Source: Candidatus Omnitrophota bacterium
Lineage (GTDB): Bacteria; Omnitrophota; Gorgyraeia; JABMRG01
Length of the DNA: 59,172 bases
Direction: 5' to 3'
Assembly (NCBI GenBank): GCA_042577545.1
Contig: JBHPDT010000003.1
Span: forward strand, 1-59,172
In this document: piece after piece, positions 435-25,549 of the stretch
How the letters are laid out: each line of letters opens with the position of its first letter
Numbering within the stretch: the first letter of the stretch is position 1
Notes under the pieces: model-generated
Told to the model about the DNA's origin: nothing
Seen by the model: only the letters and a program-made list of their open reading frames with translations
Databases searched by the model: none
Program-made: the position numbers and the translations under genes

Positions 435-1481
435 TTAGATTCTTGATCTCTCTGAACTTAATGTCCTGCTTAAGGATGATGCCACATATTCTACCATAGC
501 CACCATCTTGCCATACTCCATTCTTGTAGGACCGATTATCCCAAGAGTTCCACAGGATGTATCTCCTACACAATAGTTGCATGTTATAAGAGAGCAATCG
601 CTCAACTCATCATCCACCTCTGAGCCTATGTAAATATGAACGCCCTCTTCATCCATATCCTTCTTAAGCAATGAGAACAAAAAATCTTTATCCTCTAACC
701 TGTTAAAGAGGCCTTGCAGTTTATCCGCATCATGAAACTCCGGATGCGCCGCAATATGAGCCCTGCCATTGAGATAGACCTTATTCTCTTTTACTATATC
801 AAGCATAACATCGATAATCGCCTTAGCGCGCTCAAGCACATAGAAGAATGAGTCTCTCTCAACTATAAGCCTCTGCATCAGTTCTCGTCTAATGGCTAAT
901 AGTGAGCCCTTATTTATATGGCTATTTATAAAATTCGCTATGCGAAGTAACTCAGCCTGATCTATATCGCCATCAGTATCAATGAGTATATCGTTAGTAA
1001 ATCCTGATTCTGATAAGAGCACCATCAATATTCTATACTCATCTACTTTAATAAGCTGGACCTTCTTAAAGTAGCTTTTCTGAAGAAGCGGAAATAAGAC
1101 TATACCTGTCTGATGAGTAAGTGAAGACAGGAGGTCTGATGTCTTATCAAGTACATTATCGAGTTCATTGATCCTGTTCTTATATTCCTTATTTATTCGC
1201 CTCTTCTCTTCTTCATTCAATAGCTCTGCCTGCATAAGCTTATTGATATAATAACGATAGCCCTTCTGGGTAGGAATACGTCCCGCGGAAGTATGCGGAT
1301 GCATGATCATGCCCATCTCTTCAAGATCAGACATGATATTTCTGATGGTAGCAGAAGATAAATTTAAACGCAGTTTTCTGCTGATAGTGCGCGATGCGAT
1401 AGGCACAGCAGTGCTTATGTAGGAGTTGATGATCAGCCCCAGTATCTTATCTCTTCTTACTGCAAAGTCTCTCGTTACCAT
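435..1481 (-). CDS. hrcA: Heat-inducible transcription repressor HrcA
   Basis: 348 aa. N-terminal winged helix ISRKLRLNLSSATIRNIMSDLEEMGMI..HTSAGRIPTQKGYRYYI is typical of HrcA. A perfect CIRCE lies upstream and grpE downstream. Confidence 0.93.
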   Translation of the reverse strand: MVTRDFAVRRDKILGLIINSYISTAVPIASRTISRKLRLNLSSATIRNIMSDLEEMGMIMHPHTSAGRIPTQKGYRYYINKLMQAELLNEEEKRRINKEYKNRINELDNVLDKTSDLLSSLTHQTGIVLFPLLQKSYFKKVQLIKVDEYRILMVLLSESGFTNDILIDTDGDIDQAELLRIANFINSHINKGSLLAIRRELMQRLIVERDSFFYVLERAKAIIDVMLDIVKENKVYLNGRAHIAAHPEFHDADKLQGLFNRLEDKDFLFSLLKKDMDEEGVHIYIGSEVDDELSDCSLITCNYCVGDTSCGTLGIIGPTRMEYGKMVAMVEYVASSLSRTLSSERSRI

Positions 1482-1513: not shown

Positions 1514-1540
1514 TTAGCACTCTATGATTAAGAGTGCTAA
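1514..1540. promoter_or_regulatory. CIRCE operator (HrcA binding site)
   Basis: TTAGCACTC-tatgattaa-GAGTGCTAA is an exact match to the CIRCE consensus TTAGCACTC-N9-GAGTGCTAA. It sits 33 nt upstream of the hrcA start. Confidence 0.92.
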
Positions 1541-1551
1541 TTGAGATGTAG

Positions 1552-1579
1552 ATTCTACCATATTGGGGAATTTTGTCAA
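1552..1579 (-). promoter_or_regulatory. Sigma-70-type promoter of hrcA operon
   Basis: Minus strand reads TTGACA (1579-1574), a 16-nt spacer, then TAGAAT (1557-1552), immediately upstream of CIRCE. Confidence 0.6.
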
Positions 1580-1722: not shown

Positions 1723-4700
1723 CTACGCGGCGCTGTCTATGGCAGCTAGTTTGGCTCTGGATGGCTGATCACTAGGTCTACAAGACATCGCAAATACCCT
1801 TATCATAGCCAAATCAAAAGGCTCTCCATTATACGTACCTAGTCTACCAGCAGAAGAAGCTTTGTGTTTTAAATAAAATTTCTCATGCCTTGTGGCTTGA
1901 ATAGGTAATGAAAAGGTTGTTACAGCAAAGTTTCTACCTCTTCCACCAATCAGCTCTCTCAGTGCTTTATCAGAAGCAAGTTCTTCAATAGCATCGGCAA
2001 ATCCACTCTCATCATTTAACCTAACTAGATAACCCGTATAGCCACCTATCATAGCTTGTGAGACACCATCTACATCGTATACTACAACCGGCTTGCCCAT
2101 AGACTGCGCCTCTATAATTACTCTGGGTAAACCTTCACCTGTAGTAGGTAATGCGATTAAGTCAGCCTCCTGATATAACCTCTTTAATTCCTCTGATGAA
2201 ACCTCACCCTTAAATTCAACTAAATCCCTAAGCCCAAGCTCATTAATCAGCTCGTGAAGTTCTTTATCATATCCTGGCAGTATATGATCCTTACCAGCAA
2301 ATATATACTTTGCTTTTACGCTACGCTTTCTTAAGTCATCTATAATGCGCACCATCCCGATCTGATTTTTTCTTTCGCATATAGAAGCTGGTACTAGAAC
2401 TGTGGGCAACTCATTAGCTCCTTTTTCTTCTATATCAAGATCGGGTTGAAAGAACTCAGTATCAACACCATTAAACAATACATCAAATCGCTTACGTAAA
2501 ATTCCGGGGATATCTACTCCGGTAACACCGCCTATGCCATCAGCTAGTCCAATAAGTTCAGGATAATGCTCCTCTCTTAGCATGTCATTACCTTCATGAT
2601 GCTGCATTAAGACCTTCAGGCCCTTGCGCTTCGCAGCCCTTGCTAATGGCTCACAATGCGGATGAAATAATGAGTGTATCATAACAAGGTCTATATGATG
2701 CTGCGCGAACAATTCATTAGCTTTATCTAAAACACGTACTCGCTCATCATCAACACCAGATGGGTCATCACCATAAATATTGGTAGTATGTATAGGGACC
2801 CTCACCAACTTTCCTTTCCCGATATCTTCATAGCTTATCAAGGCCTGCTCATCTGTAGTCATATACATCTGAATTATAGTCATATTATTTCGCTCAAGCA
2901 ATGTTCTGTTCAAAAATTGCAAGTGACGCTGAATGCCACCGCCTCCATCATATCCATGTGAAAATCTGAGTATTGTCATGCCATTGAGTCTGTCTGTAGC
3001 TTCCAGCTCTTCCTGTGTAACCTGCATAGGTGGTTTAGCTGTACCTGCGGATGAGGCCTTACCCTGACCACCTGCATCTACTGACTCATCCAACTCAACC
3101 ATAAACAACCAACCCCTGCCGTACGGGTCTTCATTCACATCCGTTGCGTCGGCTGTTACAAATTTATTGACACTAACAACCTTTCCAGCAACAGGAGAAA
3201 AAACTTCAAAAGTAGCCTTATCAGTTTGTAAACTACCGCATACTTCTTCACTAGATACAACAGCGCCAATCGCGGGTAATACAACCTTTGATACACCACT
3301 GAGCAGTTTAATTGTCTCAGCTGTCAAACCTACAACAGCAAATTTTCCATCTTGGACAATTCTAGACCACTCACCTGATTCTATGGCTTCAGATTCATCA
3401 GGATCAGCGCTCCAGCCTTTAAAAGGATCTTCATAATCATACAGAGTCTCTATAACAGCGGTCTCTCTTTCCTGGCTAAGTTCTGCCTCTCCAATATCTA
3501 AAATAGCCGCGATATCTGATGCCTTTAGCGCAACATCTGTCTGTTGCGCTGCATGAACATCAACTCTTGCAACCGGAGTGATATGGGGGGCGCTCTTAAC
3601 AAGATCCGTATTCCCATATGCTTCTTTCTTTATCGCTATCATAGCACCAGCTATCCTATCAAGATCTGCAAGACTCATAGACTGTGTTGGTTCAAACATA
3701 AGGGCCTCGTGTACTATCTGCGGAAAATATGTAGTAGGTGGATGTATGCCATAATCCTGAAGCCTCTTTGCAAAGTCATTCGCAGTTACACTTGTATCTT
3801 TCGTTATATTTTCAACTGATATTACAAACTCATGCATCCTCAACTCACCTTCGGCATAAGGTATATCAAAATGATCTTTTAACCTTGCCATAAGGTAATT
3901 TGCATTTAAGACCGCATCGCCGCTTGCCTGCCTTAAGCCTTTCACACCAAGCGTTCTTATATACGCATAGGCTCTTACTGAAACAGGTATATTTCCAAGA
4001 AATGTACCTATCTTAATCGCATCCTTTACATCATAATCAAGGCGATACCCCTGGGCTTTCTTCACTATCCTAGGCCTAGGTAAAAACTTGGCAAGCTTAG
4101 ATTTTACACATATAGGCCCAGAACCAGGCCCTCCTCCACCATGCGGGGCACTGAATGTCTTATGAAGATTTATATGTAGAACATCAACCCCAAGATCACC
4201 TGGCCTTATCCTACCTATTATAGAATTAAGATTCGCTCCATCCATGTAAACAAGTCCGCCTGCTTCCTGGACTAACCGCGCTGCTTCTTTGAGGTCATCA
4301 AAGAGACCAACTGTGTTTGGAGCTGTTAGCATTATAGCGGCAACCTTTCCCCTATTCTCTTCTTTTGCTAAAACTTCCTTAAGAGAATCTAAATTAAGTC
4401 GGCCTGTCTCCTCATCTGTCTTAACCTCTTCAACCTTACCATCAGTCATAGCAGAAGTCGCGGGATTTGTTCCATGCGCAGCGTCCGTAGTTATAATTAC
4501 TTTCCGATCATGATCACCATTATTCTCATGATATCTCATAATAGTAGTTAAGCCGGTGAACTCACCATGGGCTCCTGCGGATGGGTGTAAAGATGTATCA
4601 TCCATGCCTGTCAAATCTTTTAAATATATGCCTAGCTCATAAAGCATTTGGAGTGTGCCTTGTGACAAGTCCTCAGGGCCATAGGGATGTGATTTCGCGA

Positions 4701-7700
4701 AACCATCAAACCCAACTATCCTCTCGTGAACAATGGGGTTCCACATCATGGTACATGAACCAAGAGGATAAGGATTATCTACCGGGTTATAATTCTGATC
4801 TGCCAACCTGCGTAATACCTTTCTTAAGACCGGATCAGATATAACAGGAATATCAAATTCAGTATCCCTCTTCAACTCATCGGGGATTACAAAAGAATTC
4901 TTCTCTTTGGTCTGATCGGATATTTCTGTATTCCCTTCAGCAATCTCAGTAAGAGCCTCCAAGAGCGCCCTTAACTCCTTTGTTGTGTTTGTTCGCGTAA
5001 ATGAGAATTGAATAAGATTCTCTCCCAAATGAGAAAAATATTTGGATACATCAAACCCAGCATTTATACCTTTTTTTTGTAAGCGTCTCTGAAGTTCATC
5101 AATAGGAATAGGGGATTTAACCACAACCTCTCTTACAATCGGGCCTGAGCTAAATACACTAAAACCTTTGAGTTTATCAACAAACTCCGCGAATGTGCTA
5201 GCAAATTGATGAGACCATATCGAGATCATATCTATTTCACTTTTGCCCTGACCCGCTATATTAACTGCCGCAGCCATGGCATTCAATGCAGCATTCGTAC
5301 ATATATTACAAGGAGCATCTTCTCGAGCAACATGCTGCTCCCTATGAGTTAATGCCAAGACAAGAGCAGTCTCACCCTTATCATCCGTAGTCTGGCCAAC
5401 TAGTCTGCCAGGCATAAAATTTATAAGTTTTCTTTTGCACGCCATAATACCTAAGTTATTTCCGCCATAATATGGCTTTCCAACAAATGCCTGGCCTTCC
5501 GCAGTAACAATATCAGCGCCGTAACTTCCAGGGGATTTTATCTGTGAAAATACAACCGGATCATTTGAGTGGATATGTAAAAGCGCCTTATTTGCTTTGA
5601 CAATTTCAGCTATTCCTGGAATCTCAGTCTCAAGCTCACCTAGAAAGTTCGGTTGCTGCATTACAATAGAGGCTACGCTCTCATCCATCTCTTTCCTCAG
5701 CGCCTTTACATCTATCCTGCCTGTCTCTTTATCCGCATTAATATATATAACCTCTATTCCACTATTCTTAACATGCGTATCAAGTGTCATCCTATGAAAT
5801 GGATTTATTGCTCCAGCAACTATGACCTTCTTCCTTCCCATAGCGCTACATGCCATTCTAACACCTTCAACAAAGGCATTAGCCCCATCATAGAGCGAGG
5901 CATTGACCACCTCCATATCAAGGAGCTTTGCCATTATAGACTGGTAAAGGTATATCAACCTTAAATTACCCTGACTCACCTCAGGCTGATATGGCGTATA
6001 AGAGGTAAAAAACTCTGGCATTCCTATTAAATAAGCGACGAGATCTGAGATAGGCTCATCATAAGTTCCTGCCCCAAGAAAAGAAGCCATATCTGTATCA
6101 TTCTCAAGACTTAATCCCGACATCAACCTAAAGATCTCTCTTCTGGCAGTTTCAGGATCAAGCTCTTCTGGCAAATCCCAATCTCCAGCATAAAAGTCTT
6201 CCTGTAGATCACCGTAAAGACCATCAACTGTATCAACGCCATATGCTTTTTTGATTACAGCGAGTTTCTTTGCTCTATCCTCATCTCCTCCTGGTATATA
6301 AAAAGGTGCTCTCTCTCTATAATCTATGCCCCTATCAGAGACTATATTATTTATAAATGGAGTTTTGACTACCTTAGCCGGTGTTTTGCTACCAGCTATC
6401 TCTATCCTTATCTCTGTACCTATATCTGCAACAGCCTTATCAACATAAACAAGGCCAATGCCAGCTTTTAAATTAGGTGAGAAGACCCCGCTCGTTACAT
6501 AACCTATTTCTTTACCTTGAAGATCAAATACCTTATCTCCATTATAAGGTTGGCTCCTATCATCTAAGATGCGCACACCAACCAATTTTTTATTAGAACG
6601 CCTCTTCTTTGCAATAGCCCTTCTCTTGCCTATGTAATTTCCTCGCACCCGATGACTAGTGTTTAAGGCCCACCCATACTTATATTCATAAGGCATAGGC
6701 GCCTCATCAGCCTGATCCCACTCATGCCCATATAAAGGCAAACCTGCCTCAAGCCTTAAAGAATCACGAGCCTGAAGCCCAGCAGGCTTTGCGCCAAGTG
6801 CTATGACAGCCCTCCAAAAATCTATGGCATCATCTGGGTGAAGATGTATCTCGAATCCATCCTCACCAGTGTAGCCGGTTCTCTGTATTAAGAAATACTT
6901 TGTGAATGGTATCTTACCGCCCATTTTTTTCATTGTAATATCAATATGATCTACTTTAAAATATCCCAGGCTTCTTATATCTTCTTTATCTTTATCAGCG
7001 CTAGCCATAGATTCTAATATGCGTTGCGCCATCGGGCCTTGTAAAGCTAATATAATACGACTAAAATTGGGGTTCGCGGCGTTTCGAAGATCCCTCATCA
7101 CAACATTAAATTCAGTCGGTCTACCTCTAACCTCTTTTATCTTGCTGGTAATCCACTCCCGCGCCTTATCTGTATTCCCAGCATTGACTATTAATCGAAA
7201 GTGGTCAGACTCTAGTTTAATAACTTGTATGTCATCTATGATATTACCTTTATCGTCCAGCAAAAATCTGTACTGAACATCTTTATCTTTAAACTTCCTT
7301 ATTCTTCCATCTCTATTCACATTTGGTGAGGAGATCCAGTCAATAAACATTGCGGTGTCATCTCCTACAAGATCGATCAACCCCATATGGCTCTCATCAA
7401 ATATAGATACGCCCCGTCTTGTATTGAGATTCTCCTGAGCGGCGTCTCCATAATGGAGCGGCATATTCCAACCGCCAAACCCAGCCATTGTAGCGCCATG
7501 AACGCCTATATGCTCATCGTAAAGCACTGTCTTCTTAAGATCATCGTCCGGCTCAGATACAATATCATCAACATGATGTGTGATCAATGCAACAATAGAA
7601 TCATGAACACCCGCATCATTCGGATACTTTGCCAATATCTGGTTGGTAATCTCCATGCCTAAATCAGAATCTAACTGCAATATAGCATATGCGATAGCCA

Positions 7701-8802
7701 CTAAATCCTCTAAAGACGGAGAATCTAATGTCAATAGTTCTCTCGCTTTCTCCGCTAGAGGTTGAGCTGCTTTAGGATTCCCTATCTCGCCTAGAATTTT
7801 TGCAGTACTTTTTATTGCTGCTACATATTTAGGGTCATTAAACGCAGCGATCATAGCATCAACAGATTCCCCGCCAACCGGCATTTCAGCAGACTTACCC
7901 GAAAACCATTCATGCATCAGAGTCTCTGCCTCATCAGCCATTGTAGCAAGAGTCCTTGCGCCAAGACGGTTGAGTTGTTCTGCAATCCGTGCTCTGGTAA
8001 CGTCGGTTAAGCTGCCAGCAGATGAAGCTTTGCCTGCTATCATATTAGATGCTGCTTCCTTAAACGCCTGAACCTGCCTAGGATTAATAAATATATCAAA
8101 CCCTCTCATATCACCCCTGTGCGTTCGATGTACTAAGCAGCCAACGGTCTCATGACCAATCTTAAAACTCACATAATCAACTCGACCTGGCTTGAGATTC
8201 TTTATTCTTGCCTTATCCTGTTCAATAGATAATCGTTGAAGCAAATCTGCTGCCTCAGAATATCCATCTATAGCTAAGACCATAAGTTGCTTGCTCGGAT
8301 TAAGCGTACTACTTAAATTAGCTAGTGAAAATGTAAACTTTCTGATAATTTGTTGATCAACAACTTCCTTAAACTTGCCTCTCAAATATTCAATTACACC
8401 ATCCGCGTCCCCATTATCTACCACTAATCGAAAACTCTCTGGCCCAATTTTTACAATTTGTAAGTCCGTAGATATTCCATCGCCATATTCTAAAGTCCTA
8501 TAATCGACGTCCCCACTCTTTAATCTGTAAAAAAAACCATCCCTAGGATCACCTATAAATATGTAATCAAAAAGTGGCATAAGATATCTGCCTTGCACGT
8601 CAACTATGCCAACTTGAGTTCTATTAGCAAGGGTTAAACTCTTCCCACCTACCCGGAAAAGTTCCAACTCGCCTGCTCGCGCCGCAGCCATGGGCCTTAA
8701 TGAATCATCTTCTCTTGAAATTTTATCTGGAATAGAAAAAGATACTGTGGATTGAATAAGGAATGTAATTGTAATAATACTAGTTAGTACTCGTTTAAAC
8801 AT
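1723..8802 (-). CDS. Giant fusion protein: signal/anchor, GcvT-like module, HEAT-like repeats, GcvT, GcvPA, GcvPB, GcvH, GT-B glycosyltransferase
   Basis: Uninterrupted 2,359-codon ORF. Motifs seen:
- GcvT: VSIFDESHMG, GYTGEDGFEI, ARDSLRLEAGLPLYGHE
- GcvPA: SFLGAGTYDEP, YTPYQPEVSQG
- GcvPB: PLGSCTMMWNP, INLHKTFSAPHGGGGPGSGP (PLP lysine)
- GcvH: TDKATFEVFSPVAGKVVSVN, EDPYGRGWL (lipoyl lysine)
- GT1/GT4: TGEGLPRVIIEAQSMGKPVV
- Hydrophobic N-terminus: MFKRVLTSIITITFLIQSTVSFS. Confidence 0.85.
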   Translation of the reverse strand: MFKRVLTSIITITFLIQSTVSFSIPDKISREDDSLRPMAAARAGELELFRVGGKSLTLANRTQVGIVDVQGRYLMPLFDYIFIGDPRDGFFYRLKSGDVDYRTLEYGDGISTDLQIVKIGPESFRLVVDNGDADGVIEYLRGKFKEVVDQQIIRKFTFSLANLSSTLNPSKQLMVLAIDGYSEAADLLQRLSIEQDKARIKNLKPGRVDYVSFKIGHETVGCLVHRTHRGDMRGFDIFINPRQVQAFKEAASNMIAGKASSAGSLTDVTRARIAEQLNRLGARTLATMADEAETLMHEWFSGKSAEMPVGGESVDAMIAAFNDPKYVAAIKSTAKILGEIGNPKAAQPLAEKARELLTLDSPSLEDLVAIAYAILQLDSDLGMEITNQILAKYPNDAGVHDSIVALITHHVDDIVSEPDDDLKKTVLYDEHIGVHGATMAGFGGWNMPLHYGDAAQENLNTRRGVSIFDESHMGLIDLVGDDTAMFIDWISSPNVNRDGRIRKFKDKDVQYRFLLDDKGNIIDDIQVIKLESDHFRLIVNAGNTDKAREWITSKIKEVRGRPTEFNVVMRDLRNAANPNFSRIILALQGPMAQRILESMASADKDKEDIRSLGYFKVDHIDITMKKMGGKIPFTKYFLIQRTGYTGEDGFEIHLHPDDAIDFWRAVIALGAKPAGLQARDSLRLEAGLPLYGHEWDQADEAPMPYEYKYGWALNTSHRVRGNYIGKRRAIAKKRRSNKKLVGVRILDDRSQPYNGDKVFDLQGKEIGYVTSGVFSPNLKAGIGLVYVDKAVADIGTEIRIEIAGSKTPAKVVKTPFINNIVSDRGIDYRERAPFYIPGGDEDRAKKLAVIKKAYGVDTVDGLYGDLQEDFYAGDWDLPEELDPETARREIFRLMSGLSLENDTDMASFLGAGTYDEPISDLVAYLIGMPEFFTSYTPYQPEVSQGNLRLIYLYQSIMAKLLDMEVVNASLYDGANAFVEGVRMACSAMGRKKVIVAGAINPFHRMTLDTHVKNSGIEVIYINADKETGRIDVKALRKEMDESVASIVMQQPNFLGELETEIPGIAEIVKANKALLHIHSNDPVVFSQIKSPGSYGADIVTAEGQAFVGKPYYGGNNLGIMACKRKLINFMPGRLVGQTTDDKGETALVLALTHREQHVAREDAPCNICTNAALNAMAAAVNIAGQGKSEIDMISIWSHQFASTFAEFVDKLKGFSVFSSGPIVREVVVKSPIPIDELQRRLQKKGINAGFDVSKYFSHLGENLIQFSFTRTNTTKELRALLEALTEIAEGNTEISDQTKEKNSFVIPDELKRDTEFDIPVISDPVLRKVLRRLADQNYNPVDNPYPLGSCTMMWNPIVHERIVGFDGFAKSHPYGPEDLSQGTLQMLYELGIYLKDLTGMDDTSLHPSAGAHGEFTGLTTIMRYHENNGDHDRKVIITTDAAHGTNPATSAMTDGKVEEVKTDEETGRLNLDSLKEVLAKEENRGKVAAIMLTAPNTVGLFDDLKEAARLVQEAGGLVYMDGANLNSIIGRIRPGDLGVDVLHINLHKTFSAPHGGGGPGSGPICVKSKLAKFLPRPRIVKKAQGYRLDYDVKDAIKIGTFLGNIPVSVRAYAYIRTLGVKGLRQASGDAVLNANYLMARLKDHFDIPYAEGELRMHEFVISVENITKDTSVTANDFAKRLQDYGIHPPTTYFPQIVHEALMFEPTQSMSLADLDRIAGAMIAIKKEAYGNTDLVKSAPHITPVARVDVHAAQQTDVALKASDIAAILDIGEAELSQERETAVIETLYDYEDPFKGWSADPDESEAIESGEWSRIVQDGKFAVVGLTAETIKLLSGVSKVVLPAIGAVVSSEEVCGSLQTDKATFEVFSPVAGKVVSVNKFVTADATDVNEDPYGRGWLFMVELDESVDAGGQGKASSAGTAKPPMQVTQEELEATDRLNGMTILRFSHGYDGGGGIQRHLQFLNRTLLERNNMTIIQMYMTTDEQALISYEDIGKGKLVRVPIHTTNIYGDDPSGVDDERVRVLDKANELFAQHHIDLVMIHSLFHPHCEPLARAAKRKGLKVLMQHHEGNDMLREEHYPELIGLADGIGGVTGVDIPGILRKRFDVLFNGVDTEFFQPDLDIEEKGANELPTVLVPASICERKNQIGMVRIIDDLRKRSVKAKYIFAGKDHILPGYDKELHELINELGLRDLVEFKGEVSSEELKRLYQEADLIALPTTGEGLPRVIIEAQSMGKPVVVYDVDGVSQAMIGGYTGYLVRLNDESGFADAIEELASDKALRELIGGRGRNFAVTTFSLPIQATRHEKFYLKHKASSAGRLGTYNGEPFDLAMIRVFAMSCRPSDQPSRAKLAAIDSAA
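1873..2985 (-). other. GT-B fold glycosyltransferase (family 1/4-like) module (aa ~1940-2310)
   Basis: ILRFSHGYDGGGGIQRH, FAGKD...LVEFKGEVSSEELKRLYQEADLIALPTTGEGLPRVIIEAQSMGKPVVVYDVDG. Confidence 0.75.
3088..3450 (-). other. GcvH lipoyl-carrier module (aa ~1785-1905)
   Basis: VGLTAETIKLLSGV, SLQTDKATFEVFSPVAGKVVSVN, VNEDPYGRGWLFMVEL. The lysine sits at the canonical lipoylation position. Confidence 0.8.
3568..4845 (-). other. Glycine dehydrogenase subunit 2 (GcvPB) module (aa ~1320-1745)
   Basis: YPLGSCTMMWNP, HPSAGAHGEFTGL, HINLHKTFSAPHGGGGPGSGPICVK. Confidence 0.85.
4933..6300 (-). other. Glycine dehydrogenase subunit 1 (GcvPA) module (aa ~835-1290)
   Basis: SFLGAGTYDEPISDLV, FFTSYTPYQPEVSQGNLRLIYLYQSIMAKLLDMEVVNASLYDGANA. 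Confidence 0.85.
6328..7530 (-). other. GcvT aminomethyltransferase module (aa ~425-825)
   Basis: LYDEHIGVHGATMAGFGGWNMPLHYG, FDESHMG, GYTGEDGFEIHL, RLEAGLPLYGHE. Confidence 0.85.
8053..8625 (-). other. Degenerate GcvT-like module (aa ~60-250 of giant ORF)
   Basis: DLQIVKIGPESFRLVVDNGDADGVIEYLRGKFKEV (aa 113-146) parallels DIQVIKLESDHFRLIVNAGNTDKAREWITSKIKEV (aa 524-558) of the bona fide GcvT module, indicating internal duplication. Confidence 0.55.
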
Positions 8803-8885
8803 AAAAATACCCCTTCATATGAACCAATGATTTTGTTGAATTTTTAAAGCGGTAAAAATTATATATTCTTTAAAAATGTTTATCA

Positions 8886-8914
8886 ATTATACTATAAAAC
8901 TTTTAACCTGTCAA
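8886..8914 (-). promoter_or_regulatory. Consensus sigma-70 promoter of the giant ORF
   Basis: Minus strand reads TTGACA (8914-8909), a 17-nt spacer, then TATAAT (8891-8886). Both hexamers match consensus perfectly, about 85 nt upstream of the start at 8802. Confidence 0.65.
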
Positions 8915-8918
8915 TCCC

Positions 8919-8942
8919 TATTTCGGGGACTATTTCGGGGAC
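8919..8942. repeat. Tandem 12-bp direct repeat just upstream of the -35
   Basis: TATTTCGGGGAC occurs twice (8919-8930 and 8931-8942), abutting the -35 hexamer. Possible activator/UP site. Confidence 0.5.
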
Positions 8943-9001
8943 GGTCCTAAAGGTAGCAGGTCTGAGCACAAAAAACTCCGTTATTTCAAGAAAACCCTTT
9001 A

Positions 9002-9083
9002 GGGACGTTGCTCAATCGGGGGTACTTGTGCCTGCCTCGCCGCAGGCGGGCTCAAGCGAAGTCCCCGAAGGGGACAACGTCCC
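9002..9083. repeat. REP-like palindrome E2 (composite) downstream of hflX
   Basis: Outer arms GGGACGTTG (9002-9010) and CAACGTCCC (9075-9083) match the E1/E3 arms. The interior carries the extra hairpins GCCTGC-ctcgcc-GCAGGC and GTCCCC-gaa-GGGGAC. On the minus strand it is followed by CCCTAAAGGGTTTTC. Confidence 0.6.
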
Positions 9084-9103
9084 TGAAGTATTTTTTTACA
9101 GAG

Positions 9104-10366
9104 TTAGATATTGAGGGTCATTTTGGTGGGGATAATTGCCTTTATGCGGACACCTTCGGGGGAGTCGTTTCTCTCAATGACTTTGCCTTCTTGATATATC
9201 TTATTCAATAGGCCTAATTTGTTATAAGGCACTACTAAATCAACAGTTCTAACAAGTGATTTGAGTTTTTTGCTGATAATATCAGATAAACCCCCAAACC
9301 CTGTCTCTTTCAGGGCTGAGATCGCCACGCAGTCTCCTATATTTCTTCGAAAGCGCTCGATCGTATACTTATTATCCAGGAGATCCACCTTGTTTAATGC
9401 CGTAATAATAGGCTTATCATAAGCATCTAACTCTTTAAGCACAGAATATACCGCCTTAAGATGTTCATCTGCCTTAGCGCTGCTTATATCAATTACATGA
9501 AGCAGAAGATCAGCCTCCTTAACCTCCTCAAGTGTTGCCTTAAAGGCCTCGATCAACCCATGAGGAATATCATGGATAAAACCTACGGTATCGATAAACA
9601 GCAGTTTTTGGTTATTGGGAAGTGAATATCTACGTGAGACCGCGTCAAGAGTACAGAAGAGCTTATTATCCGCATCAACTGAAGAACCTGTAAGCTGATT
9701 TAAGAGTGTGGACTTACCAGCATTCGTATATCCTACAATAGCGACTGTGGCAAGAGAATGCTCTGAGCGATTACGCCTTAGCTGGCTGCGCCTCTTCTCA
9801 AGGCTGGTAAGATCGGTCTTGATATATTTTATCTTTCTCATTATACCTCTGCGATCTGTCTCAAGCATCTGCTCACCTGGGCCGCGAGTACCGATACCAC
9901 CTCCAAGGCGTGAGAGCTTAATGCCAAGGCCTGAAAGTCTCGGAAGCGCGTATTCCAGCTGCGCTAACTCAACCTGCAGTTTACCTTCATTAGTATGGGC
10001 GCGCTGAGCAAATACATCCAATATAAGCTGGGTTCTATCTACTACCTTGATCTTTAAAACCTCTTTAAGGTTGCGTCCTTGAGTTGGAGAGAGATTTCTA
10101 CTAAATAGTACCGCGTCTATCTCACCATCATAAGCATCTATGAGCGCGCGGACCTCCTCAAGCTTGCCTTTTCCAACAAGATAGTTTGGGGTAAGCTTAT
10201 CCCTCTTGCATCTGATCTCATCTACTACATTAGCGCCGCTTGAGGTAGCGAGCTTCCTAAGCTCTTTGGCAGAATCATCCGCCCCCCAGCCTCTCTTCTC
10301 ATCTTCGGGAAGGGCTACTGTAACTAGAACAACCTTCTCTTTTAAGCGCTCTTTGATCTCATACAT
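9104..10366 (-). CDS. hflX: GTPase HflX
   Basis: 420 aa. HflX N-domain (ELRKLATSSGA, LILDVFAQRAHTNEGKLQVELAQL) and G-domain (VGYTNAGKSTLLNQLTG, DTVGF, NKVD). Confidence 0.92.
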   Translation of the reverse strand: MYEIKERLKEKVVLVTVALPEDEKRGWGADDSAKELRKLATSSGANVVDEIRCKRDKLTPNYLVGKGKLEEVRALIDAYDGEIDAVLFSRNLSPTQGRNLKEVLKIKVVDRTQLILDVFAQRAHTNEGKLQVELAQLEYALPRLSGLGIKLSRLGGGIGTRGPGEQMLETDRRGIMRKIKYIKTDLTSLEKRRSQLRRNRSEHSLATVAIVGYTNAGKSTLLNQLTGSSVDADNKLFCTLDAVSRRYSLPNNQKLLFIDTVGFIHDIPHGLIEAFKATLEEVKEADLLLHVIDISSAKADEHLKAVYSVLKELDAYDKPIITALNKVDLLDNKYTIERFRRNIGDCVAISALKETGFGGLSDIISKKLKSLVRTVDLVVPYNKLGLLNKIYQEGKVIERNDSPEGVRIKAIIPTKMTLNI

Positions 10367-12098: not shown

Positions 12099-14435
12099 CT
12101 AGTAATATACGTGTTCCAGGCTTATTCTGGCGCTCTTTCTCTTAAAAATGTGCCACTTACCGGTTTTTATCTGAACAAACTTATTAAAGACAGCTATCTT
12201 AAGAGGCGCCTTTCGCTGCGCGGCTACCTTTATCTTAATTGTGTTATTAGTAACCTTAAAATGCACAGAAACACCCTCGAAGATCAGTGAAAAGATTACC
12301 TCCCTCCAGGAATAAGGAAGAATCGGATTAATAGTAAGTTTCTCCTTTCTTATCCTGACACCGCAAAATCCGAATATTACCGCCTGCCATACACCTCCTA
12401 GGGATGCGGCGTGCATACCCTCTTTTGTATTGCGAAATAGATTGCTTATATCCATTCGCAGCGCCACATTAAAGAAGCTATAGGCCCTCTGCATATCTCC
12501 TACGTCGCAAGCGCAGATAGAATGCATAGAGGGACTCAAGGAAGAGCTGTGGAGTGTTCTGTCCACATAAAATCTGTAATTATTTATTTTAGTCTTTGAC
12601 GTAAAAACATCATCTAGCAGATAAATAAGCATCAGAACATCCGCTTGCTTAACCAATTGAGTCTTCTCAATATCCCTAGATCCCAATTTGCCCGATATGA
12701 TGGGCATACCATTCTCATCCTTACTAGTAGGTATGACTTTCTTTAACTTCAGGTATCCATCAAACTGTTCTATTATATTATCCTTTGTGATATTAAATAC
12801 GATAGATGATGATATGCGTTTCCATTCAGCCGCTTCCTTATCGCTTAATGAAAGCTTGTTCTTTATCTTATTATAAAAACTTTTATCCTTTTTTATCTTG
12901 TAAAAAAGTTTATATGCTATAATGAGATTCCACTTAGCCATCATGTTGGTAAAAGCGTTATTATTCACATTAACATGAAACTCATCCGGACCAATAACAT
13001 TAAGTATGCTGTATTTTGATGTCCTCTTATTATATTTTACCCTCGATGCCCAAAATCGAGCTGTCTCAAACATCACCTCATACCCGTAGTCTCGGAAAAA
13101 CTTCTCGTCCTTGGTAACCACATAATATTTATAAAAAGCGTAAGCCACATCCGCTGTTATATGATGCTCAAATTCATGTGTATGAACCCGTGTTATTTTT
13201 CCGTTAATATCCCTAGCCCACGCCGGCGTATTATCCTCTCCTGTTGAGGCTGATTCCCAGGCAAACTTAGCTCCTTTATAAGCCTCTTCTTTTGCGAGCT
13301 GACGCGAAGCATCCAGTCTTCTATATCTATAGAGAAGCATATTCTTTGCAACTTCTGGTAATGTAAAAAGGTAGAAAGGCATGAGGAATATCTCACCATC
13401 CCAGAATATGTGACCTCGATAGCCTTCACCGCTAAGAGTCCGGGCGCCTATGCTGGAAAAACCGTTATCGCGCGCCGCGACAGTAAGCATATGATAGATA
13501 TTAAAGCGCAGATTCTGTTGCAAATTTGATGTACCGCTTATAATGATATCAGCCCTGCTCCAGAGTTTGTGCCAAGAATCTATATGCTCTTTGAGTATCC
13601 GTTTAAAATCGCCCTTAAAATAGAGCATGAACTGCTTATGAGTCCTTAATTTAACATTAGCCCGCTTACCTTCTTGGCAAGGAAATCTCTTTATATGAAA
13701 GACCTTTGTAAATATGGTAGGCTTGTTCTTCTTAAGGCTCAATTTAAACACATTATCCTTGGCAAAAACCCTTTTCCTGTTCTGCTCATAATAAAAACCG
13801 CTCCAATAAGCGATAGAATGCTTCTTCTCAAGGGTTTCTATAACAAGGTAACCTGCTTTGTCCTGCTGCCCTAGTTCTCTAATTCGAAAATGCTTCTTCT
13901 TAGTCCCCTCACTGATAACAGGCGCATTGTAGACAGCTGTATCTATTCCTGTATTTATATCGACTGTGCAATCATCGTCAAGAGGCGTAACTATTATCTG
14001 CATTACACCTATATTCTTATTCTTCATAGATAGAAACATGAGAGATTGATAATCATAGCGTCTTTTTTTTCTGTCCCTATAAATGTCCTGGCGAATGAGC
14101 AGTCCTTTTCTCATATTAAGTACTCTCTTATGCGAAAGAAGATCCATCGCCACTACATCGAGCTTATGTCCTTCTATTGTAAATTTAAAATTCATGGGAG
14201 AGGGTAGATTTACTAACTCATCTACCTGCGATCCCATATTATCATACAATCCAGCTATATACAGACCGGGCCAGCACCCCTGCGGAGACTCTTCAAGAGA
14301 GGCCCTGGCGCCGAGATATCCATTGCTAAGTGAGAACTGGCTCTCCCTTATATTCTGAAGTTTCTTAACCCATTCGGTCTCTTTAATAAGCCAAAGTTCT
14401 TCATTTGTGTAACTGGAATAAAAATCTTTTACCAT
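12099..14435 (-). CDS. Glycoside hydrolase family 65 (disaccharide phosphorylase-like)
   Basis: 778 aa. GEGYRGHIFWDGEIFLMPFYLFTLPEVAKNMLLYRYRRLDASRQLAKEEAYKGAKFAWESASTGEDNTP is characteristic of GH65 maltose/trehalose/kojibiose phosphorylases. Confidence 0.85.
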   Translation of the reverse strand: MVKDFYSSYTNEELWLIKETEWVKKLQNIRESQFSLSNGYLGARASLEESPQGCWPGLYIAGLYDNMGSQVDELVNLPSPMNFKFTIEGHKLDVVAMDLLSHKRVLNMRKGLLIRQDIYRDRKKRRYDYQSLMFLSMKNKNIGVMQIIVTPLDDDCTVDINTGIDTAVYNAPVISEGTKKKHFRIRELGQQDKAGYLVIETLEKKHSIAYWSGFYYEQNRKRVFAKDNVFKLSLKKNKPTIFTKVFHIKRFPCQEGKRANVKLRTHKQFMLYFKGDFKRILKEHIDSWHKLWSRADIIISGTSNLQQNLRFNIYHMLTVAARDNGFSSIGARTLSGEGYRGHIFWDGEIFLMPFYLFTLPEVAKNMLLYRYRRLDASRQLAKEEAYKGAKFAWESASTGEDNTPAWARDINGKITRVHTHEFEHHITADVAYAFYKYYVVTKDEKFFRDYGYEVMFETARFWASRVKYNKRTSKYSILNVIGPDEFHVNVNNNAFTNMMAKWNLIIAYKLFYKIKKDKSFYNKIKNKLSLSDKEAAEWKRISSSIVFNITKDNIIEQFDGYLKLKKVIPTSKDENGMPIISGKLGSRDIEKTQLVKQADVLMLIYLLDDVFTSKTKINNYRFYVDRTLHSSSLSPSMHSICACDVGDMQRAYSFFNVALRMDISNLFRNTKEGMHAASLGGVWQAVIFGFCGVRIRKEKLTINPILPYSWREVIFSLIFEGVSVHFKVTNNTIKIKVAAQRKAPLKIAVFNKFVQIKTGKWHIFKRKSARISLEHVYY

Positions 14436-18570: not shown

Positions 18571-19866
18571 CTATTTTAACTTCTTCTCAATTACCTCGTA
18601 AATCTCAGTGTGCTTGCCGCGATCCCAATTTAAATAAATGGATTTAGATAATTCTTCATTTAACGGCAGCGCCTTCAGATTGTTTTCCTGAAAGATCTTC
18701 AATATCGTGGGCGAATACTTTTCACATAACCAACATTCGCCCGGAAATTCGAAACGACTTCTCATCCTCTTGTAAATATCAATAAAATCCTCTTGCCCGA
18801 TATTGCCGAAGGAAATATTCAGGAACTCGCACGGCTGAACGTCTCCTTTTGCGTTAATATAAAATCTGTCTGTGCCGCCGGCAGTACATCCAAAAACATT
18901 GGGATCCTCTTCAAGAATTTGCGCTGAAATCGAAGGATAATCTTTATAGCGGGCATCGTTGTTATACATGTGAACCAATTCTTTAATATTATCCAGATCA
19001 GCTTTGCTGAAATTCTCTATGCCTGACTCAAGCCATCCTCCCGAAGGCTTGGGTTTTATCAGCTGAATCAAACACGCGTTAAATTCTTTTGTCTTATCCA
19101 TTAATTTCTGAAAATCTCCGTTATAAAAGCTTTCCCGCTTAAGACAAGAGTTAAAGGTTACTGCAACATCTGCTTTATGGCATAAACGAATGCCTTCAAC
19201 CATAGTGTTCCAGGCTTTATCTGACTTCATAAAGGCATTAACTTTTTCCGGTTCTGTGCTATGCAGTGAAAACATAATTGCTGTAAGGCCTAAGCTTTTC
19301 AATTCCTTTAAACGTTCAATGCTCATTTCGTCACCAGTTGAATTAACCCAAATCTCTGCCCCCTTACCAATCGCTGCACATAATTTTTTAAGACGCTCAT
19401 AAACCAAAAAGGGCTCTCCACCTTCGATATTGAAAAAGGCAATGCCTAAATCCTGCAATTTCTTAACCGCAGCGATAGTTAGATCAATATTGATATCCTT
19501 GCCTAAATCCTTTTTCTGATAGCAATGTTCGCAATTAAATCGGCAAGCTGAAGTGACCGAAACAAGCACTGTCGTGCAAGGGAGCTTTTCATCAAACACC
19601 ATGAACTTGCGACAGGCGGTAAAAAATGCCTTGGAAGGAAAACGGGGAATATATAACCCGAGGCGAACGCTATTTCCTATTTTAACAAACTTGTTATGAT
19701 AAATTTTCGATAGAAAATAGAGCAACCGTCTTAGAAATAATATGTATCTTCGCGGAGAAACCTTGCCTTTAAATAGGTCTGGAAGATAATAAAATAAAAT
19801 CCACAACTTAACCTTGGTGGCAAATAGACACTTCCTGAATCCAGTAATATTTTTTCCTTTTATCAT
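18571..19866 (-). CDS. Radical SAM protein with C-terminal SPASM/twitch-like Cys region
   Basis: VSVTSACRFNCEHCYQ (CX3CX2C), GGEPF, and C-terminal FGCTAGGTDRFYINAKGDVQPCEF plus CWLC. Confidence 0.8.
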   Translation of the reverse strand: MIKGKNITGFRKCLFATKVKLWILFYYLPDLFKGKVSPRRYILFLRRLLYFLSKIYHNKFVKIGNSVRLGLYIPRFPSKAFFTACRKFMVFDEKLPCTTVLVSVTSACRFNCEHCYQKKDLGKDINIDLTIAAVKKLQDLGIAFFNIEGGEPFLVYERLKKLCAAIGKGAEIWVNSTGDEMSIERLKELKSLGLTAIMFSLHSTEPEKVNAFMKSDKAWNTMVEGIRLCHKADVAVTFNSCLKRESFYNGDFQKLMDKTKEFNACLIQLIKPKPSGGWLESGIENFSKADLDNIKELVHMYNNDARYKDYPSISAQILEEDPNVFGCTAGGTDRFYINAKGDVQPCEFLNISFGNIGQEDFIDIYKRMRSRFEFPGECWLCEKYSPTILKIFQENNLKALPLNEELSKSIYLNWDRGKHTEIYEVIEKKLK

Positions 19867-19868
19867 AT

Positions 19869-20906
19869 TTAACCAGCCTGCTCTTTATACCACTTAACGG
19901 TATTTTTTATTCCTTCGTCTAAATCATAACTGCTTTTATATCCTAATACTTGCTCGGCACGATCCGTTGAATATTCGATATTGTCATAAAACATATTTAC
20001 CCTGCCTCTTGTCAACAAAGGTGGATTTTTAACATTAAACATAGTGTATATCAACTCCAAGAAGAATCCTAGGGGATAAACCATCCATTTAGGCAGCAAT
20101 ATTGGTTTTTTGACTTTAGCGTGTTCACAAAACAAAGAAAATATATTGTCCAGATGTTCATGTTTATGATCACCAATAATAATTCGATGTATCCCTTTCA
20201 ACTGTTTAGTAAACGCTAAATAATAAGCCCTAGCCACATCGGCAGCATAAACCACATGGAATTTATTTTTTCTAGATCCCGGAGAAACCGGAATCCCCTG
20301 TTCAACAGACTTAATATATTCAAGAAATACAGTGTCTTTGCCGTTTTCTCCATATACCCAGACAGGCTCTAATATAGTCAAATTCATACCTTTGATCGTG
20401 GCAAAATCTATAGCTTTTTCAGAAGCAATTCTTTTTGTATCCCGATAGTGATTCAGCTTACAAGGAAACATGCTGTCTAAAAAATATGGATAATGAGAGT
20501 TGTAAGGTGAATTTTCGCTTTTTATTTCAGAAGAATCTTCTTCCCCATAAACTGAGTTTGTACTTGTAACGATTGCATCCTTTATTCCATTTACAACACA
20601 AGCATTAAGAACATTGACGGTGCCCTCGACATTAGTTTGATAAAATGTGTCATAGCCTCCCCAATCTTTGGCGTAAGCGGCATTATGAATAACAAAATCA
20701 TATCCTTTAAAGGCATTTATTAAACTCTGCTGATCACGAATATCGCCGTATTTCAATTCAACATCATATTGTTTTATATAATCTAAATTGCTTGCCTTTC
20801 GGACAAGACAAGAGACCTTAACGCCATTATTTGAAAACGCCTTCACAATATGACTGCCGATAAATCCATTGCCGCCTGTAATTATTATTTTATTTTTTAT
20901 TGTCAT
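19869..20906 (-). CDS. NAD(P)-dependent epimerase/dehydratase-family SDR (3-beta-HSD-like)
   Basis: ITGGNGFIGSHIV Rossmann motif and YRDTK (YxxxK). Confidence 0.8.
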   Translation of the reverse strand: MTIKNKIIITGGNGFIGSHIVKAFSNNGVKVSCLVRKASNLDYIKQYDVELKYGDIRDQQSLINAFKGYDFVIHNAAYAKDWGGYDTFYQTNVEGTVNVLNACVVNGIKDAIVTSTNSVYGEEDSSEIKSENSPYNSHYPYFLDSMFPCKLNHYRDTKRIASEKAIDFATIKGMNLTILEPVWVYGENGKDTVFLEYIKSVEQGIPVSPGSRKNKFHVVYAADVARAYYLAFTKQLKGIHRIIIGDHKHEHLDNIFSLFCEHAKVKKPILLPKWMVYPLGFFLELIYTMFNVKNPPLLTRGRVNMFYDNIEYSTDRAEQVLGYKSSYDLDEGIKNTVKWYKEQAG

Positions 20907-22170
20907 ATTTCTTTAACACAATCCCCGCGTTATGCCCACCAAAACCATAAGATGTTGATATCGCCATATTCACTTCAGACTCAATGGACTTATCTACTAA
21001 ATTTAAGTTTTCTCGTGGTTCAGGAACACTGTTTCCATGGATCTTTGATTCTTTAATCGTAAGTGCTGTTACTGCCGTCTCTAAAGCCGCGCTTGCTCCA
21101 AGGGTATGCCCGAGTATGCCTTTTGTAGAATTAACAAGTGGTTGATCACTTTTAGGACCGAAAACCTCAGCTATCGCTTCGGATTCAATAGCATCATTAG
21201 CAAGAGTGCCGCTTCCATGGGCATTTAGATAATCAATGCGGCGATCCTGCTTAAGTCTGTCCAACAATTTCTTAATCTGACAACCTGACGGCTCCATTTG
21301 AACGATGTTAAAGGCATCGCTGTTGCTTTGGAAATCTACTATTTCAGCATAAATAGGAGTTCCTCTCTTTAAGGCATGCTGCTCCTCTTCTAGCACAAGA
21401 ATACAAGCAGCCCCTTGAGAAAATAAAAAGCCCGTACTTGTCTTTGAAAAAGGATACGGGATACCGTCTGGTGATTGTGTAAGAACACCTAACATATCAA
21501 ATCCTCTCATTATCCCGCCGAAATTATCAGATAGACACTCTACTCCTCCAGTTAAAATAATATCTTCGGGCCCATTTTTGATCTTCTCATAAGCATTGCC
21601 AACAGCAAACATCCCTGAGGCGCAAGCAGCGTTAATTGTATAGCTCGTTCCTTTTAATCCATAGGTGATTGAAATCCAACTGGAAATCGAGTTCGGCATA
21701 AGCATAGGCACAACCATGCGGTTATAACGAATTTTAATATTATCCAAAGCCTTAGGAATTTCGCTCTTATCCTTGATTATGTGGGCTAAATAAGAATGGA
21801 ATCCTGTTTCAAGGCTGCTGATACCTATACCGACTATGACGCCACATCCATTAATCCCATTTATAGAAAAGTTATTCTCATTTTTAACTACTTTTAATCC
21901 TGCATCCTTCAAGGCCAGACTAGCGGCAATTAAAGATAGTTTATCTTCGCCCTGCGTAACCTTGCTGTAATACTGCGGGAACCCGTATCCTTCGAGCTCT
22001 ACGGCTGGATGAGGATTGTAATAACGGGATTTAAAAGTATAACCTATCTCAAAATCCTCTGGTATTTCCTTAATGCACATGCGATTATTAAGAATGCTAT
22101 CAAAGAAGTCATCCTTACCTATTCCGATGGAACTCACAGGCCCAATACCAGTTATTACGACTCGCCGCAT
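20890..22170 (-). CDS. Beta-ketoacyl-ACP synthase (KAS I/II, FabF/FabB-like)
   Basis: VVITGIGPVSSIG, active-site INAACASG, NAHGSGT, GHTLGASAALE and SYGFGGHNA. Confidence 0.88.
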   Translation of the reverse strand: MRRVVITGIGPVSSIGIGKDDFFDSILNNRMCIKEIPEDFEIGYTFKSRYYNPHPAVELEGYGFPQYYSKVTQGEDKLSLIAASLALKDAGLKVVKNENNFSINGINGCGVIVGIGISSLETGFHSYLAHIIKDKSEIPKALDNIKIRYNRMVVPMLMPNSISSWISITYGLKGTSYTINAACASGMFAVGNAYEKIKNGPEDIILTGGVECLSDNFGGIMRGFDMLGVLTQSPDGIPYPFSKTSTGFLFSQGAACILVLEEEQHALKRGTPIYAEIVDFQSNSDAFNIVQMEPSGCQIKKLLDRLKQDRRIDYLNAHGSGTLANDAIESEAIAEVFGPKSDQPLVNSTKGILGHTLGASAALETAVTALTIKESKIHGNSVPEPRENLNLVDKSIESEVNMAISTSYGFGGHNAGIVLKKYDNKK

Positions 22171-25295: not shown

Positions 25296-25540
25296 TACGA
25301 CCCCCTTAAATCAGGACAGTATTCCTTTAAAGCTTTAACAATATCCTTTACGTTTTTGATGCCTCGATAATGTTGATCTTCGATGTTTATACCAAATTCG
25401 TCCTCTAAGGCATTTACAATTATGACCATGGCAAAAGAATCAAGCCCAAGCTCATTGCGCAAATCAATATCTGCCGTAACTTTGGCTTTCTCCTCAAGGT
25501 TTTCTTCAATTATTTTTATAACTCTCTCTTCTAAGGTCAC
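25295..25540 (-). CDS. Acyl carrier protein
   Basis: 81 aa with LGLDSFAMVIIVNALEDEFG (phosphopantetheine Ser in DSF). Confidence 0.85.
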   Translation of the reverse strand: MTLEERVIKIIEENLEEKAKVTADIDLRNELGLDSFAMVIIVNALEDEFGINIEDQHYRGIKNVKDIVKALKEYCPDLRGS

Positions 25541-25549
25541 TTTCTCCTC

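Follow-up and report, generated by a model that had tools for sequence, protein, structure and literature searches.

The window analyzed here, the whole 59,172-nucleotide stretch of contig JBHPDT010000003.1 (assembly GCA_042577545.1, Candidatus Omnitrophota bacterium), contains one open reading frame (ORF) that joins the glycine-cleavage proteins T, P, and H in a single chain, which is referred to as P0001. Glycine-cleavage proteins are normally separate, and the H-protein diffuses between its partners. A preliminary description, made from the letters of the window alone, had reported an ORF of 2,359 codons at 1723-8802 without stating its strand. The ORF is present on the minus strand, and all motifs quoted in that description occur in its minus-strand translation. 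A plus-strand reading of the same interval was rejected, as the frame is full of stops. The ORF and its glycine-cleavage modules are as follows.

1723..8802, minus strand: whole ORF with ATG start, 2,359 codons plus stop, encoding P0001 (2,359 amino acids)
6346..7542, minus strand: GcvT aminomethyltransferase (GCV_T and GCV_T_C; T module), residues 421-819, from Pfam, NCBIfam, and structure alignment
4939..6300, minus strand: GcvPA, glycine dehydrogenase subunit 1 (PA module), residues 835-1288, from NF001696 (484 bits, cut-off 364)
3538..4920, minus strand: GcvPB, subunit 2 (PB module), residues 1295-1755, from NF003346 (631 bits, cut-off 441)
3073..3402, minus strand: GcvH lipoyl carrier (H module), residues ~1801-1910, from Pfam GCV_H and alignment with solved GcvH

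Modules along the chain

Pfam and NCBIfam models place the modules along the chain in the order GcvT, GcvPA, GcvPB, GcvH, and a glycosyltransferase (GT) of the GT4 type; all five assignments of the preliminary description were thus recovered by the domain scan. Its claim of a complete T-PA-PB-H set holds for these four modules, and the set is complete only if the L-protein is disregarded. The T module scores 226 bits with GCV_T and 77 bits with GCV_T_C in Pfam, and exceeds the NCBIfam cut-offs of TIGR00528 (271.7 bits, cut-off 235.85) and NF001567 (310 bits, cut-off 300). It aligns end to end with the solved stand-alone GcvT structures 1yx2 and 1vlo (Bacillus subtilis, Escherichia coli), and in this alignment the motifs FDxSHMG, IDD (catalytic Asp), RTGYTGEDGFEI, and ARDxLRLEAG are kept. 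Specifically, FDESHMG occupies residues 468-474, and RLEAGLPLYGHE occupies residues 683-694. The GcvT signature set of FDxSHMG, IDD, RTGYTGEDG, and ARDxLRLEAG is invariant in four family members. In the PB module, the pyridoxal phosphate (PLP) lysine is K1548 (codon 4159-4161) within NLHKTFSAPHGGGGPG, and it is conserved in the relatives P0002 and P0036 described below. The motif NLHKTF..HGGGGPG spans residues 1545-1560, and no variation in HKT..PHGGGGPG is seen among the full-length family members that have a PB module, three in number. The lipoyl lysine of the H module is K1862 (codon 3217-3219) in TDKATFEVFSPVAG (residues 1860-1873). The H module is alignable end to end with the solved GcvH structures 2ka7 and 3a8i, and K1862 falls on the position of the lipoyl lysine in their VKA motif. 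The module scores 59.8 bits with Pfam GCV_H, above the cut-off of 22.2, and by its sequence is a divergent H-family domain. The linkers are ~15 residues between T and PA, ~35 between PA and PB, ~50 between PB and H, and ~35 between H and GT.

Compared with the canonical split-P glycine cleavage system (GCS) of B. subtilis and Thermus thermophilus, P0001 shares all four families and keeps the catalytic Asp, the PLP lysine, and the lipoyl lysine. It differs from that system in being one T-PA-PB-H polypeptide with a signal-like N-terminus and extra modules, and in having neither a glycine riboswitch nor an L-protein gene nearby in the 59-kb window. The PA-then-PB order is shared with single-chain GcvP (TIGR00461 type; E. 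coli, Synechocystis), and TIGR00461 matches residues 896-1728, but its score of 532 bits lies under the cut-off of 859, and the P part consists of split PA/PB-type halves joined secondarily and fused to T and H. The architecture was unfamiliar to the preliminary description, and our literature search likewise turned up no report of T, P, and H being fused in nature. The enzymes are well known while their combined architecture is new, in a phylum known for long multi-enzyme proteins.

Aside from the glycine-cleavage modules, the chain has three further parts.

8035..8643, minus strand: degenerate copy of the T folate-binding domain (pseudo-T), residues 54-256 (to ~260), from BLASTP and Pfam
7561..8004, minus strand: all-helical region with one or two HEAT-like repeats (ILGEIGNPKAAQPLAEKA), residues 267-414
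1867..2970, minus strand: GT4-type GT-B glycosyltransferase, residues ~1945-2312, from Glycos_transf_1 and the EX7E motif

Pseudo-T matches the chain's own T domain by BLASTP with E=2e-18. Hence, the duplication that had been proposed for residues 113-146 and 524-558 is real and larger, extending from residue 54 to ~260 against the T domain. In Pfam, residues 60-252 match GCV_T with E=1.1e-5 and 25.2 bits, just under the cut-off of 25.6, and the FDESHMG of T has decayed to ANRTQVG. The adjoining region was predicted by AlphaFold2 on residues 1-430 without an alignment; the mean predicted local distance difference test (pLDDT) score of 47.9 makes this model usable for the helical region only, where helices reach a pLDDT of 80-89 over residues ~340-400. 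The HEAT_PBS repeat was the one weak point of the preliminary description. The Pfam HEAT models stay below their cut-offs (HEAT_2 E=0.055, 14.2 bits, cut-off 27.7; HEAT_PBS E=0.86, 10.8 bits, cut-off 20.9), while residues ~300-355, searched against 1.84 billion proteins, match HEAT-repeat proteins with E values down to 3.8e-10, and the prediction is all-helical. A HEAT-like character of this region is therefore weakly suggested.

The GT module scores 94.7-97.6 bits with Glycos_transf_1 (cut-off 26.4). The E-x7-E-like region noticed earlier, TGEGLPRVIIEAQSMG, is present, and EGLPRVIIE is an EX7E motif. The N-terminal half has a weak match to Glyco_transf_4 (16.9 bits, cut-off 28.5). The module starts at Met1944 (MTILRF...), which has no Shine-Dalgarno of its own, and an internal translation start for the GT was rejected on this ground. 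A recent origin as a copy of the neighboring GT4 genes was also rejected, the identity being 24-31% over 90 residues.

Relatives, transcription unit, and neighborhood

Fusions related to P0001 were found in other assemblies. P0002 (1,665 amino acids, NQT89691.1; contig L001 of Candidatus Omnitrophota bin.126) has the layout signal peptide-T-PA-PB-H and is 51-53% identical. P0036 (2,136 amino acids, MFH1868967.1; L008:7329-13739, plus strand) has the same layout at 43% identity. In place of GT4, P0036 carries C-terminal to H the domains AlaDH_PNT_N/C, of the alanine-dehydrogenase/transhydrogenase type that binds nicotinamide adenine dinucleotide (NAD); it is conceivable that glycine cleavage, through NH3 and NADH, is coupled to alanine formation in this protein. 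A 2.3-kb contig fragment (L003) spans the T-PA junction with 50-56% identity (56% over T-PA); it has a GC content of 40%, is labeled Actinomycetota, and is possibly mis-binned. T, PA, PB, and H are found together in every member while the other modules vary, and the catalytic hallmark residues are all kept across proteins of 43-53% overall identity.

Junction peptides are conserved across the relatives, e.g. TPFI..I.SDRG.D.RE followed by the normal PA start (F)Y(I/L)P. The module junctions of P0001 have neither a start codon nor a Shine-Dalgarno, the sole junction Met being the GT start, and composition is even along the modules (GC 0.41-0.46; GC at third codon positions 0.28-0.36). Beyond the GT, the chain ends in a tail of 40 residues with homology to the tails of those relatives that lack a GT. 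This shows the GT to be inserted within a frame that the family conserves and not to be a neighboring gene joined by error, an outcome that an assembly chimera would not give. As judged from sequence, the ORF is one genuine gene, apparently transcribed separately, of a bacterium that its closest homologue places probably in Omnitrophota.

Word-index searches with the whole protein and with the family alignment returned only P0002 and missed the known P0036, which makes the family size a lower bound. The same kind of search with the H region returned stand-alone GcvH proteins only, and not the query's own protein. Several candidates were discarded: L007, a candidate of the metagenome scan, proved to be a false positive with many stops and an unrelated protein, and L004-L006 match only the end of ordinary T-proteins. 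A viral origin was rejected, as no relative is present in IMG/VR. Five proteins of the window are present in a collection of 15 billion proteins, all as singleton clusters, and a sixth is absent from it.

The features that bear on transcription and translation of the ORF are listed below.

8886..8914, minus strand: sigma-70-type promoter-like site TTGACA-17-TATAAT, matching the consensus at 12/12 positions
8886..8858, minus strand: second promoter-like site, matching at 11/12 positions
8810..8816, minus strand: Shine-Dalgarno-like GAAGGGG, 7 nt before the ATG at 8802, read directly
1514-1540, plus strand: perfect controlling inverted repeat of chaperone expression (CIRCE) operator, TTAGCACTC-N9-GAGTGCTAA, just upstream of hrcA (435-1481, minus strand)

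The perfect promoter reported in the preliminary description is indeed found, on the minus strand at 8914..8886. The downstream hrcA has its own promoter-like site (11/12) at 1579..1552. The fusion ORF looks like a transcription unit of its own, because it has its own promoter and Shine-Dalgarno, and hrcA has a separate promoter and the CIRCE operator. Neither a glycine riboswitch nor another leader RNA was detected: no Rfam family reaches its gathering score in the whole window, and 8600-9300 gives chance-level matches only. Upstream of the promoter, the intergenic region between hflX and the fusion ORF has GC-rich hairpin-forming segments (GTCCCCTTCGGGGAC, GCCCGCCTGCGGCGAGGCAGGC) at 8950-9100 without an Rfam match. 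Segments resembling them occur among tRNA-like sequences after P0036 (L008 ~14040-14300).

The window has 49 gene-like ORFs, every one of them on the minus strand. This strand bias is unusually strong and uniform, with a plus-strand GC skew of about -0.17 over the full length of the contig. The neighbors of the fusion ORF have housekeeping or envelope functions, i.e. hrcA, hflX, miaA, a SPOR/TPR protein, a GH65 gene, two GT4 genes, and miaB. No conserved neighbor is common to the window, L001, and L008. Further genes of the window are as follows.

12099-14435: GH65 protein without receiver domain, the second of two
48318-51173, minus strand: GH65 glycoside phosphorylase/hydrolase with a C-terminal response-regulator receiver domain
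18571-27756, minus strand: radical S-adenosylmethionine (SAM)/SPASM protein, NAD epimerase, beta-ketoacyl synthase, AIR-synthase-related protein, diacylglycerol-kinase-like protein, class I/II aminotransferase, old-yellow-enzyme-type FMN oxidoreductase, and UbiA prenyltransferase
31619-40667, minus strand: YhcG/DUF1016 PDDEXK nuclease, PRiA4_ORF3-like protein, AbiEii toxin, a weak IS200-like Y1 transposase match, and a DUF4062/HATPase_c_4/Fic-like_C protein
42475-46279 and 54228-55538, minus strand: several B12-binding radical SAM proteins and a further radical SAM protein
57275-59102, contig end: HypD and a HypE-like AIRS protein, indicating NiFe-hydrogenase maturation genes

The content of 18571-27756 suggests a lipid or secondary-metabolite pathway, and 31619-40667 is likely a mobile or defense island.

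A cassette of terminal and boundary motifs

We then inspected the ends of the chain and the boundaries of its modules, where a set of short sequences recurs.

8734..8802, minus strand: signal-peptide-like N-terminus MFKRVLTSIITITFLIQSTVSFS (MFKR / hydrophobic core / SFS), residues 1-23, by eye
8674..8700, minus strand: LRPMAAARA, an (S/T/A)LRP motif, residues 35-43, from comparison of the cassette proteins
8014..8031, minus strand: KASSAG copy 1, residues 258-263, after pseudo-T in a low-confidence loop between two predicted helices
3043..3060, minus strand: KASSAG copy 2, residues 1915-1920, after H in the Gly/Ala/Ser/Pro-rich H-to-GT linker
1846..1863, minus strand: KASSAG copy 3, residues 2314-2319, directly after the GT
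1726..1845, minus strand: C-terminal tail ending KLAAIDSAA, residues 2320-2359, from comparison of C-termini

The hydrophobic N-terminus pointed out in the preliminary description is the segment MFKRVLTSIITITFLIQSTVSFS, and its signal-peptide-like character is conserved in P0002, P0036, and P0069. The last of these is unrelated to the fusion. P0069 (1,057 amino acids; L001:15148-18321, plus strand) is encoded directly downstream of P0002, and its domain content is limited to a weak HTH_17 match (22 bits, cut-off 27) and several helix-turn-helix-like segments seen by eye; it has no relative among solved structures. Its cassette comprises the start TLRPLATAR, an internal KTASAG, and the end AILSAA. 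By eye, all four cassette proteins have an n-h-c layout with a short hydrophobic core and small residues at -3/-1; in P0036 and P0069 the core is ~12 residues long and is followed by small residues. Other proteins of the window have clear signal peptides, which these N-termini resemble. Over the 18 residues that follow the signal, the net charge is positive in two of the four cassette proteins (P0036 +3, P0069 +2), and a positive charge directly after the signal core disfavors export by the general secretory (Sec) route. The (S/T/A)LRP motif follows the signal-like segment after ~10-14 residues in the full-length family proteins, and reads LRD in P0002.

KASSAG is absent from the rest of the window in any frame, and 0.0003 copies are expected from composition. 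The three copies differ in their synonymous codons; selection therefore acts on the peptide, and an origin as the scar of a recent DNA duplication was rejected. The equivalent position after H has KASSAG in P0036 and KASMPG in P0002. P0002 has KAASPG before the tail, equivalent to copy 3, and the motif before T is LKSSSQG in P0002 and LKTSSSG in P0036. Motifs of this type flank variable modules, namely GT4 in P0001 and a 32-residue spacer in P0002. The pattern K-[AST]-[AS]-[SM]-x-G has nine matches, all nine of them in the four cassette proteins, with 0.64 expected from composition; the count is based on 49,330 amino acids of stop-to-stop translation (segments of at least 80 amino acids, six frames) of the window, L001, and L008. 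As the pattern was set after inspection of P0001 and P0002, only the matches in P0036 and P0069 are independent. The C-termini share I-(D/L)-(S/T)-(A/G)-A, reading AIDSAA (P0001), AILSGA (P0002), EIDTAA (P0036), and AILSAA (P0069). Among the ORFs of at least 100 amino acids in the window, L001, and L008, only the four cassette proteins end in [ST][AG]A or AA.

No NCBIfam family matched the N- and C-terminal segments of P0001, P0002, and P0036, or P0069, even with E values up to 10 allowed, and Pfam had nothing relevant for the cassette segments. Among the literature matches listed for "KASSAG", none was a sequence string, and all were personal names. The cassette most likely directs membrane association and/or processing. 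The preliminary description had missed its KASSAG motif and C-terminal tail, as well as the strand of the ORF and the setting among the long multi-enzyme proteins of Omnitrophota.

Proposed function and alternatives

In the best-supported reading, P0001 is a glycine-cleavage (or glycine-synthase) core on a single chain, in which H is a tethered arm and which would need a separate L-protein; we give this reading a probability of roughly 0.6. Selection on the enzymatic cycle is indicated because T-PA-PB-H and the catalytic residues are kept at 43-53% identity while the rest varies. The P module, PA joined to PB as in single-chain GcvP, would presumably dimerize and would decarboxylate glycine on PLP-Lys1548. 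The aminomethyl group would be loaded onto lipoyl-Lys1862 of H, which is tethered by the ~50-residue linker after PB, and the H arm would swing to T at the front of the chain, in the same chain or in the dimer partner. T and tetrahydrofolate (THF) would then release NH3 and 5,10-methylene-THF, and the dihydrolipoyl arm would be re-oxidized by a separately encoded L-protein, outside the window. Covalent fusion would fix the stoichiometry at 1:1:1 and replace H diffusion by a swinging arm, as in E2.

In the E2 components of 2-oxoacid dehydrogenase complexes, a lipoyl-lysine domain on a flexible linker serves as the swinging arm. P0001 would resemble E2 in its way of working and not in membership: both have a tethered lipoyl domain, whereas the carrier of P0001 is of the GcvH family instead of an E2 lipoyl domain, and P0001 has no acyltransferase core. 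Around the glycine-cleavage core, the lineage would swap accessory modules, i.e. decayed T, HEAT-like region, and GT4 in P0001, AlaDH/PNT in P0036, and none in P0002. These variable modules lie between cassette elements. The gene, its modules, the retention of catalytic residues, the recurrence of the fusion, and the cassette are shown by the sequences, whereas the enzymatic activity, the shuttling of H in cis or within a dimer, what the cassette does, and where the protein lies relative to the membrane are inferred.

Several observations weigh against a tethered glycine-cleavage core. The H module falls under the NCBIfam equivalog cut-offs (TIGR00527 65 bits, cut-off 115.85; NF002270 68.7 bits, cut-off 117). 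The glycine-cleavage cycle does not account for the GT4 module and the decayed T copy. In sequence, the N-terminus resembles a Sec signal peptide of the cleaved type, which would put a system dependent on THF, NAD, and lipoate outside the cytoplasm, where the proposed mechanism cannot run. As the preliminary description had noted for the L-protein, no gene for an L-protein (Pyr_redox), a lipoate ligase or synthase, or folate or one-carbon (C1) metabolism is found among the scanned ORFs of the window, which include all those of at least 400 amino acids; nor is an L-protein, lipoylation, or C1 gene found among the called genes of L001 and L008. With no L-protein, lipoylation, or folate gene and no riboswitch nearby, only the protein itself ties the locus to glycine catabolism. 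The family is apparently also very small, with counts that are lower bounds.

The conflict between enzyme content and export-like topology has precedents in the phylum. The preprints of Nielsen & Lui (10.64898/2026.06.07.730766) and West-Roberts et al. (10.1101/2023.11.21.568195) describe Omnitrophota proteins of at least 10,000 amino acids, among them "multi-enzyme metabolic clusters" with HEAT scaffolds, GT group 1, and, in 94% of cases, a signal peptide or transmembrane segments; the former reports such long multi-enzyme proteins as typical of the phylum. This conflict is discussed, and post-translational cleavage at unknown points is proposed, in both preprints. P0001 shares with these proteins the many enzyme Pfams, a signal-peptide-like segment, a weakly supported HEAT-like region, GT1, and the same topology paradox. 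With 2,359 amino acids it lies outside the Nielsen & Lui catalogue, whose minimum is 10,000, and the likeness is one of working only. The word "glycine" is absent from the main text of the Nielsen & Lui preprint, and no boundary motif or C-terminal tail turned up in term searches of the two texts.

These proposals of secretion followed by cleavage lend themselves to a different reading of P0001, which is possible but unlikely: an exported polyprotein or effector with a true Sec signal, in which KASSAG would mark the processing sites and the (S/T)-x-A C-terminus would be a recognition tag, read e.g. by a C-terminal protease of the PDZ type or in a secretion step. As cytoplasm-type enzymes make up the cargo, its site of action would be another cell or compartment, i.e. 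a host or prey cell of episymbiotic Omnitrophota or an internal compartment, and one chain would be a way to deliver a multi-component system at fixed stoichiometry. The n-h-c N-termini in four of four cassette proteins, like clear signal peptides of the window, fit this reading, as do the restriction of KASSAG to module boundaries flanking variable modules and the same cassette on the unrelated P0069, by which the cassette would track a protein's fate and not its function. The form (S/T)-x-A-COOH is that of a class-I PDZ ligand, and the cassette C-termini have it. MARTX toxins carry variable enzyme modules in one chain with short conserved linker motifs between them. As a likeness of working that concerns export only, P0001 has variable modules and short boundary motifs as well, but it has no repeat regions, cysteine protease domain, or type I secretion signal, and has an N-terminal Sec-like signal instead. 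Export is opposed by the cofactors, as the GCS requires THF, NAD, an L-protein, and prior lipoylation, GT4 requires nucleoside diphosphate sugars, and AlaDH requires NAD(H). The net positive post-signal charge of P0036 and P0069 also disfavors it; no protease, PDZ protein, or secretion gene is conserved beside the family members, and no known cleavage specificity matches KASSAG.

A membrane-tethered scaffold, or a partial or different reaction without the full glycine-cleavage cycle, is a still less probable account. The chain could then supply aminomethyl-lipoyl-H to another pathway or act as a lipoyl relay, and GT4, pseudo-T, and the HEAT-like region would be parts of an envelope-related function. 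The sub-equivalog H score is in line with this account, and the decayed T copy implies that module decay is tolerated in the fusion gene. The neighbors, moreover, are GT4 genes, GH65, and a SPOR protein instead of C1 metabolism, the window has no L-protein gene or riboswitch, and non-GCS uses of aminomethyl-lipoyl-H are known, as far as the available text of PMC11736057 goes. Yet T, PA, and PB exceed equivalog or subfamily cut-offs, the retention of hallmark residues at 43-53% identity points to purifying selection on catalysis, and T, PA, PB, and H are never separated in any member while others vary. An artefact, in which assembly chimerism, or the loss of stops through sequencing errors, merged separate gcvT, gcvPA, gcvPB, gcvH, and GT genes into one ORF, is highly improbable. 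No positive evidence speaks for it, apart from the origin of the contig in a metagenome-assembled genome and the singleton status of the checked window proteins, and it is at odds with the independent assemblies from other samples that have the same fusion and homologous junction peptides, with the junctions lacking starts or Shine-Dalgarno sequences (the GT Met included), with the conserved tail downstream of the GT, and with the even composition.

Textbooks present glycine cleavage as the standard example of a multi-enzyme system whose parts associate loosely. A natural single chain in which H is tethered would demonstrate that a swinging arm can serve the cycle, and engineers of the reductive glycine pathway would gain a template whose stoichiometry is already fixed. 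P0001, at 2.4 thousand amino acids, is a small, expressible example of the long Omnitrophota multi-enzyme proteins with an export-like signal. The cassette of signal peptide/LRP, KASSAG, and C-terminal tail is the newest element and the one most worth following up, since it puts forward specific sequences, open to testing, as candidates for the signals of targeting and cleavage that were called missing in earlier work. Tentatively, and with considerable doubt, it may mark an undescribed Omnitrophota pathway that exports, processes, and perhaps delivers cytoplasm-type enzymes as polyproteins, with KASSAG as the cleavage point of giant proteins. Delivery may be into a host or prey cell or an internal compartment, and the cargo so far may comprise the glycine-cleavage core, GT4, the AlaDH/PNT module, and P0069. 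The presence of the cassette on the unrelated P0069 suggests a general mechanism rather than a one-off fusion.

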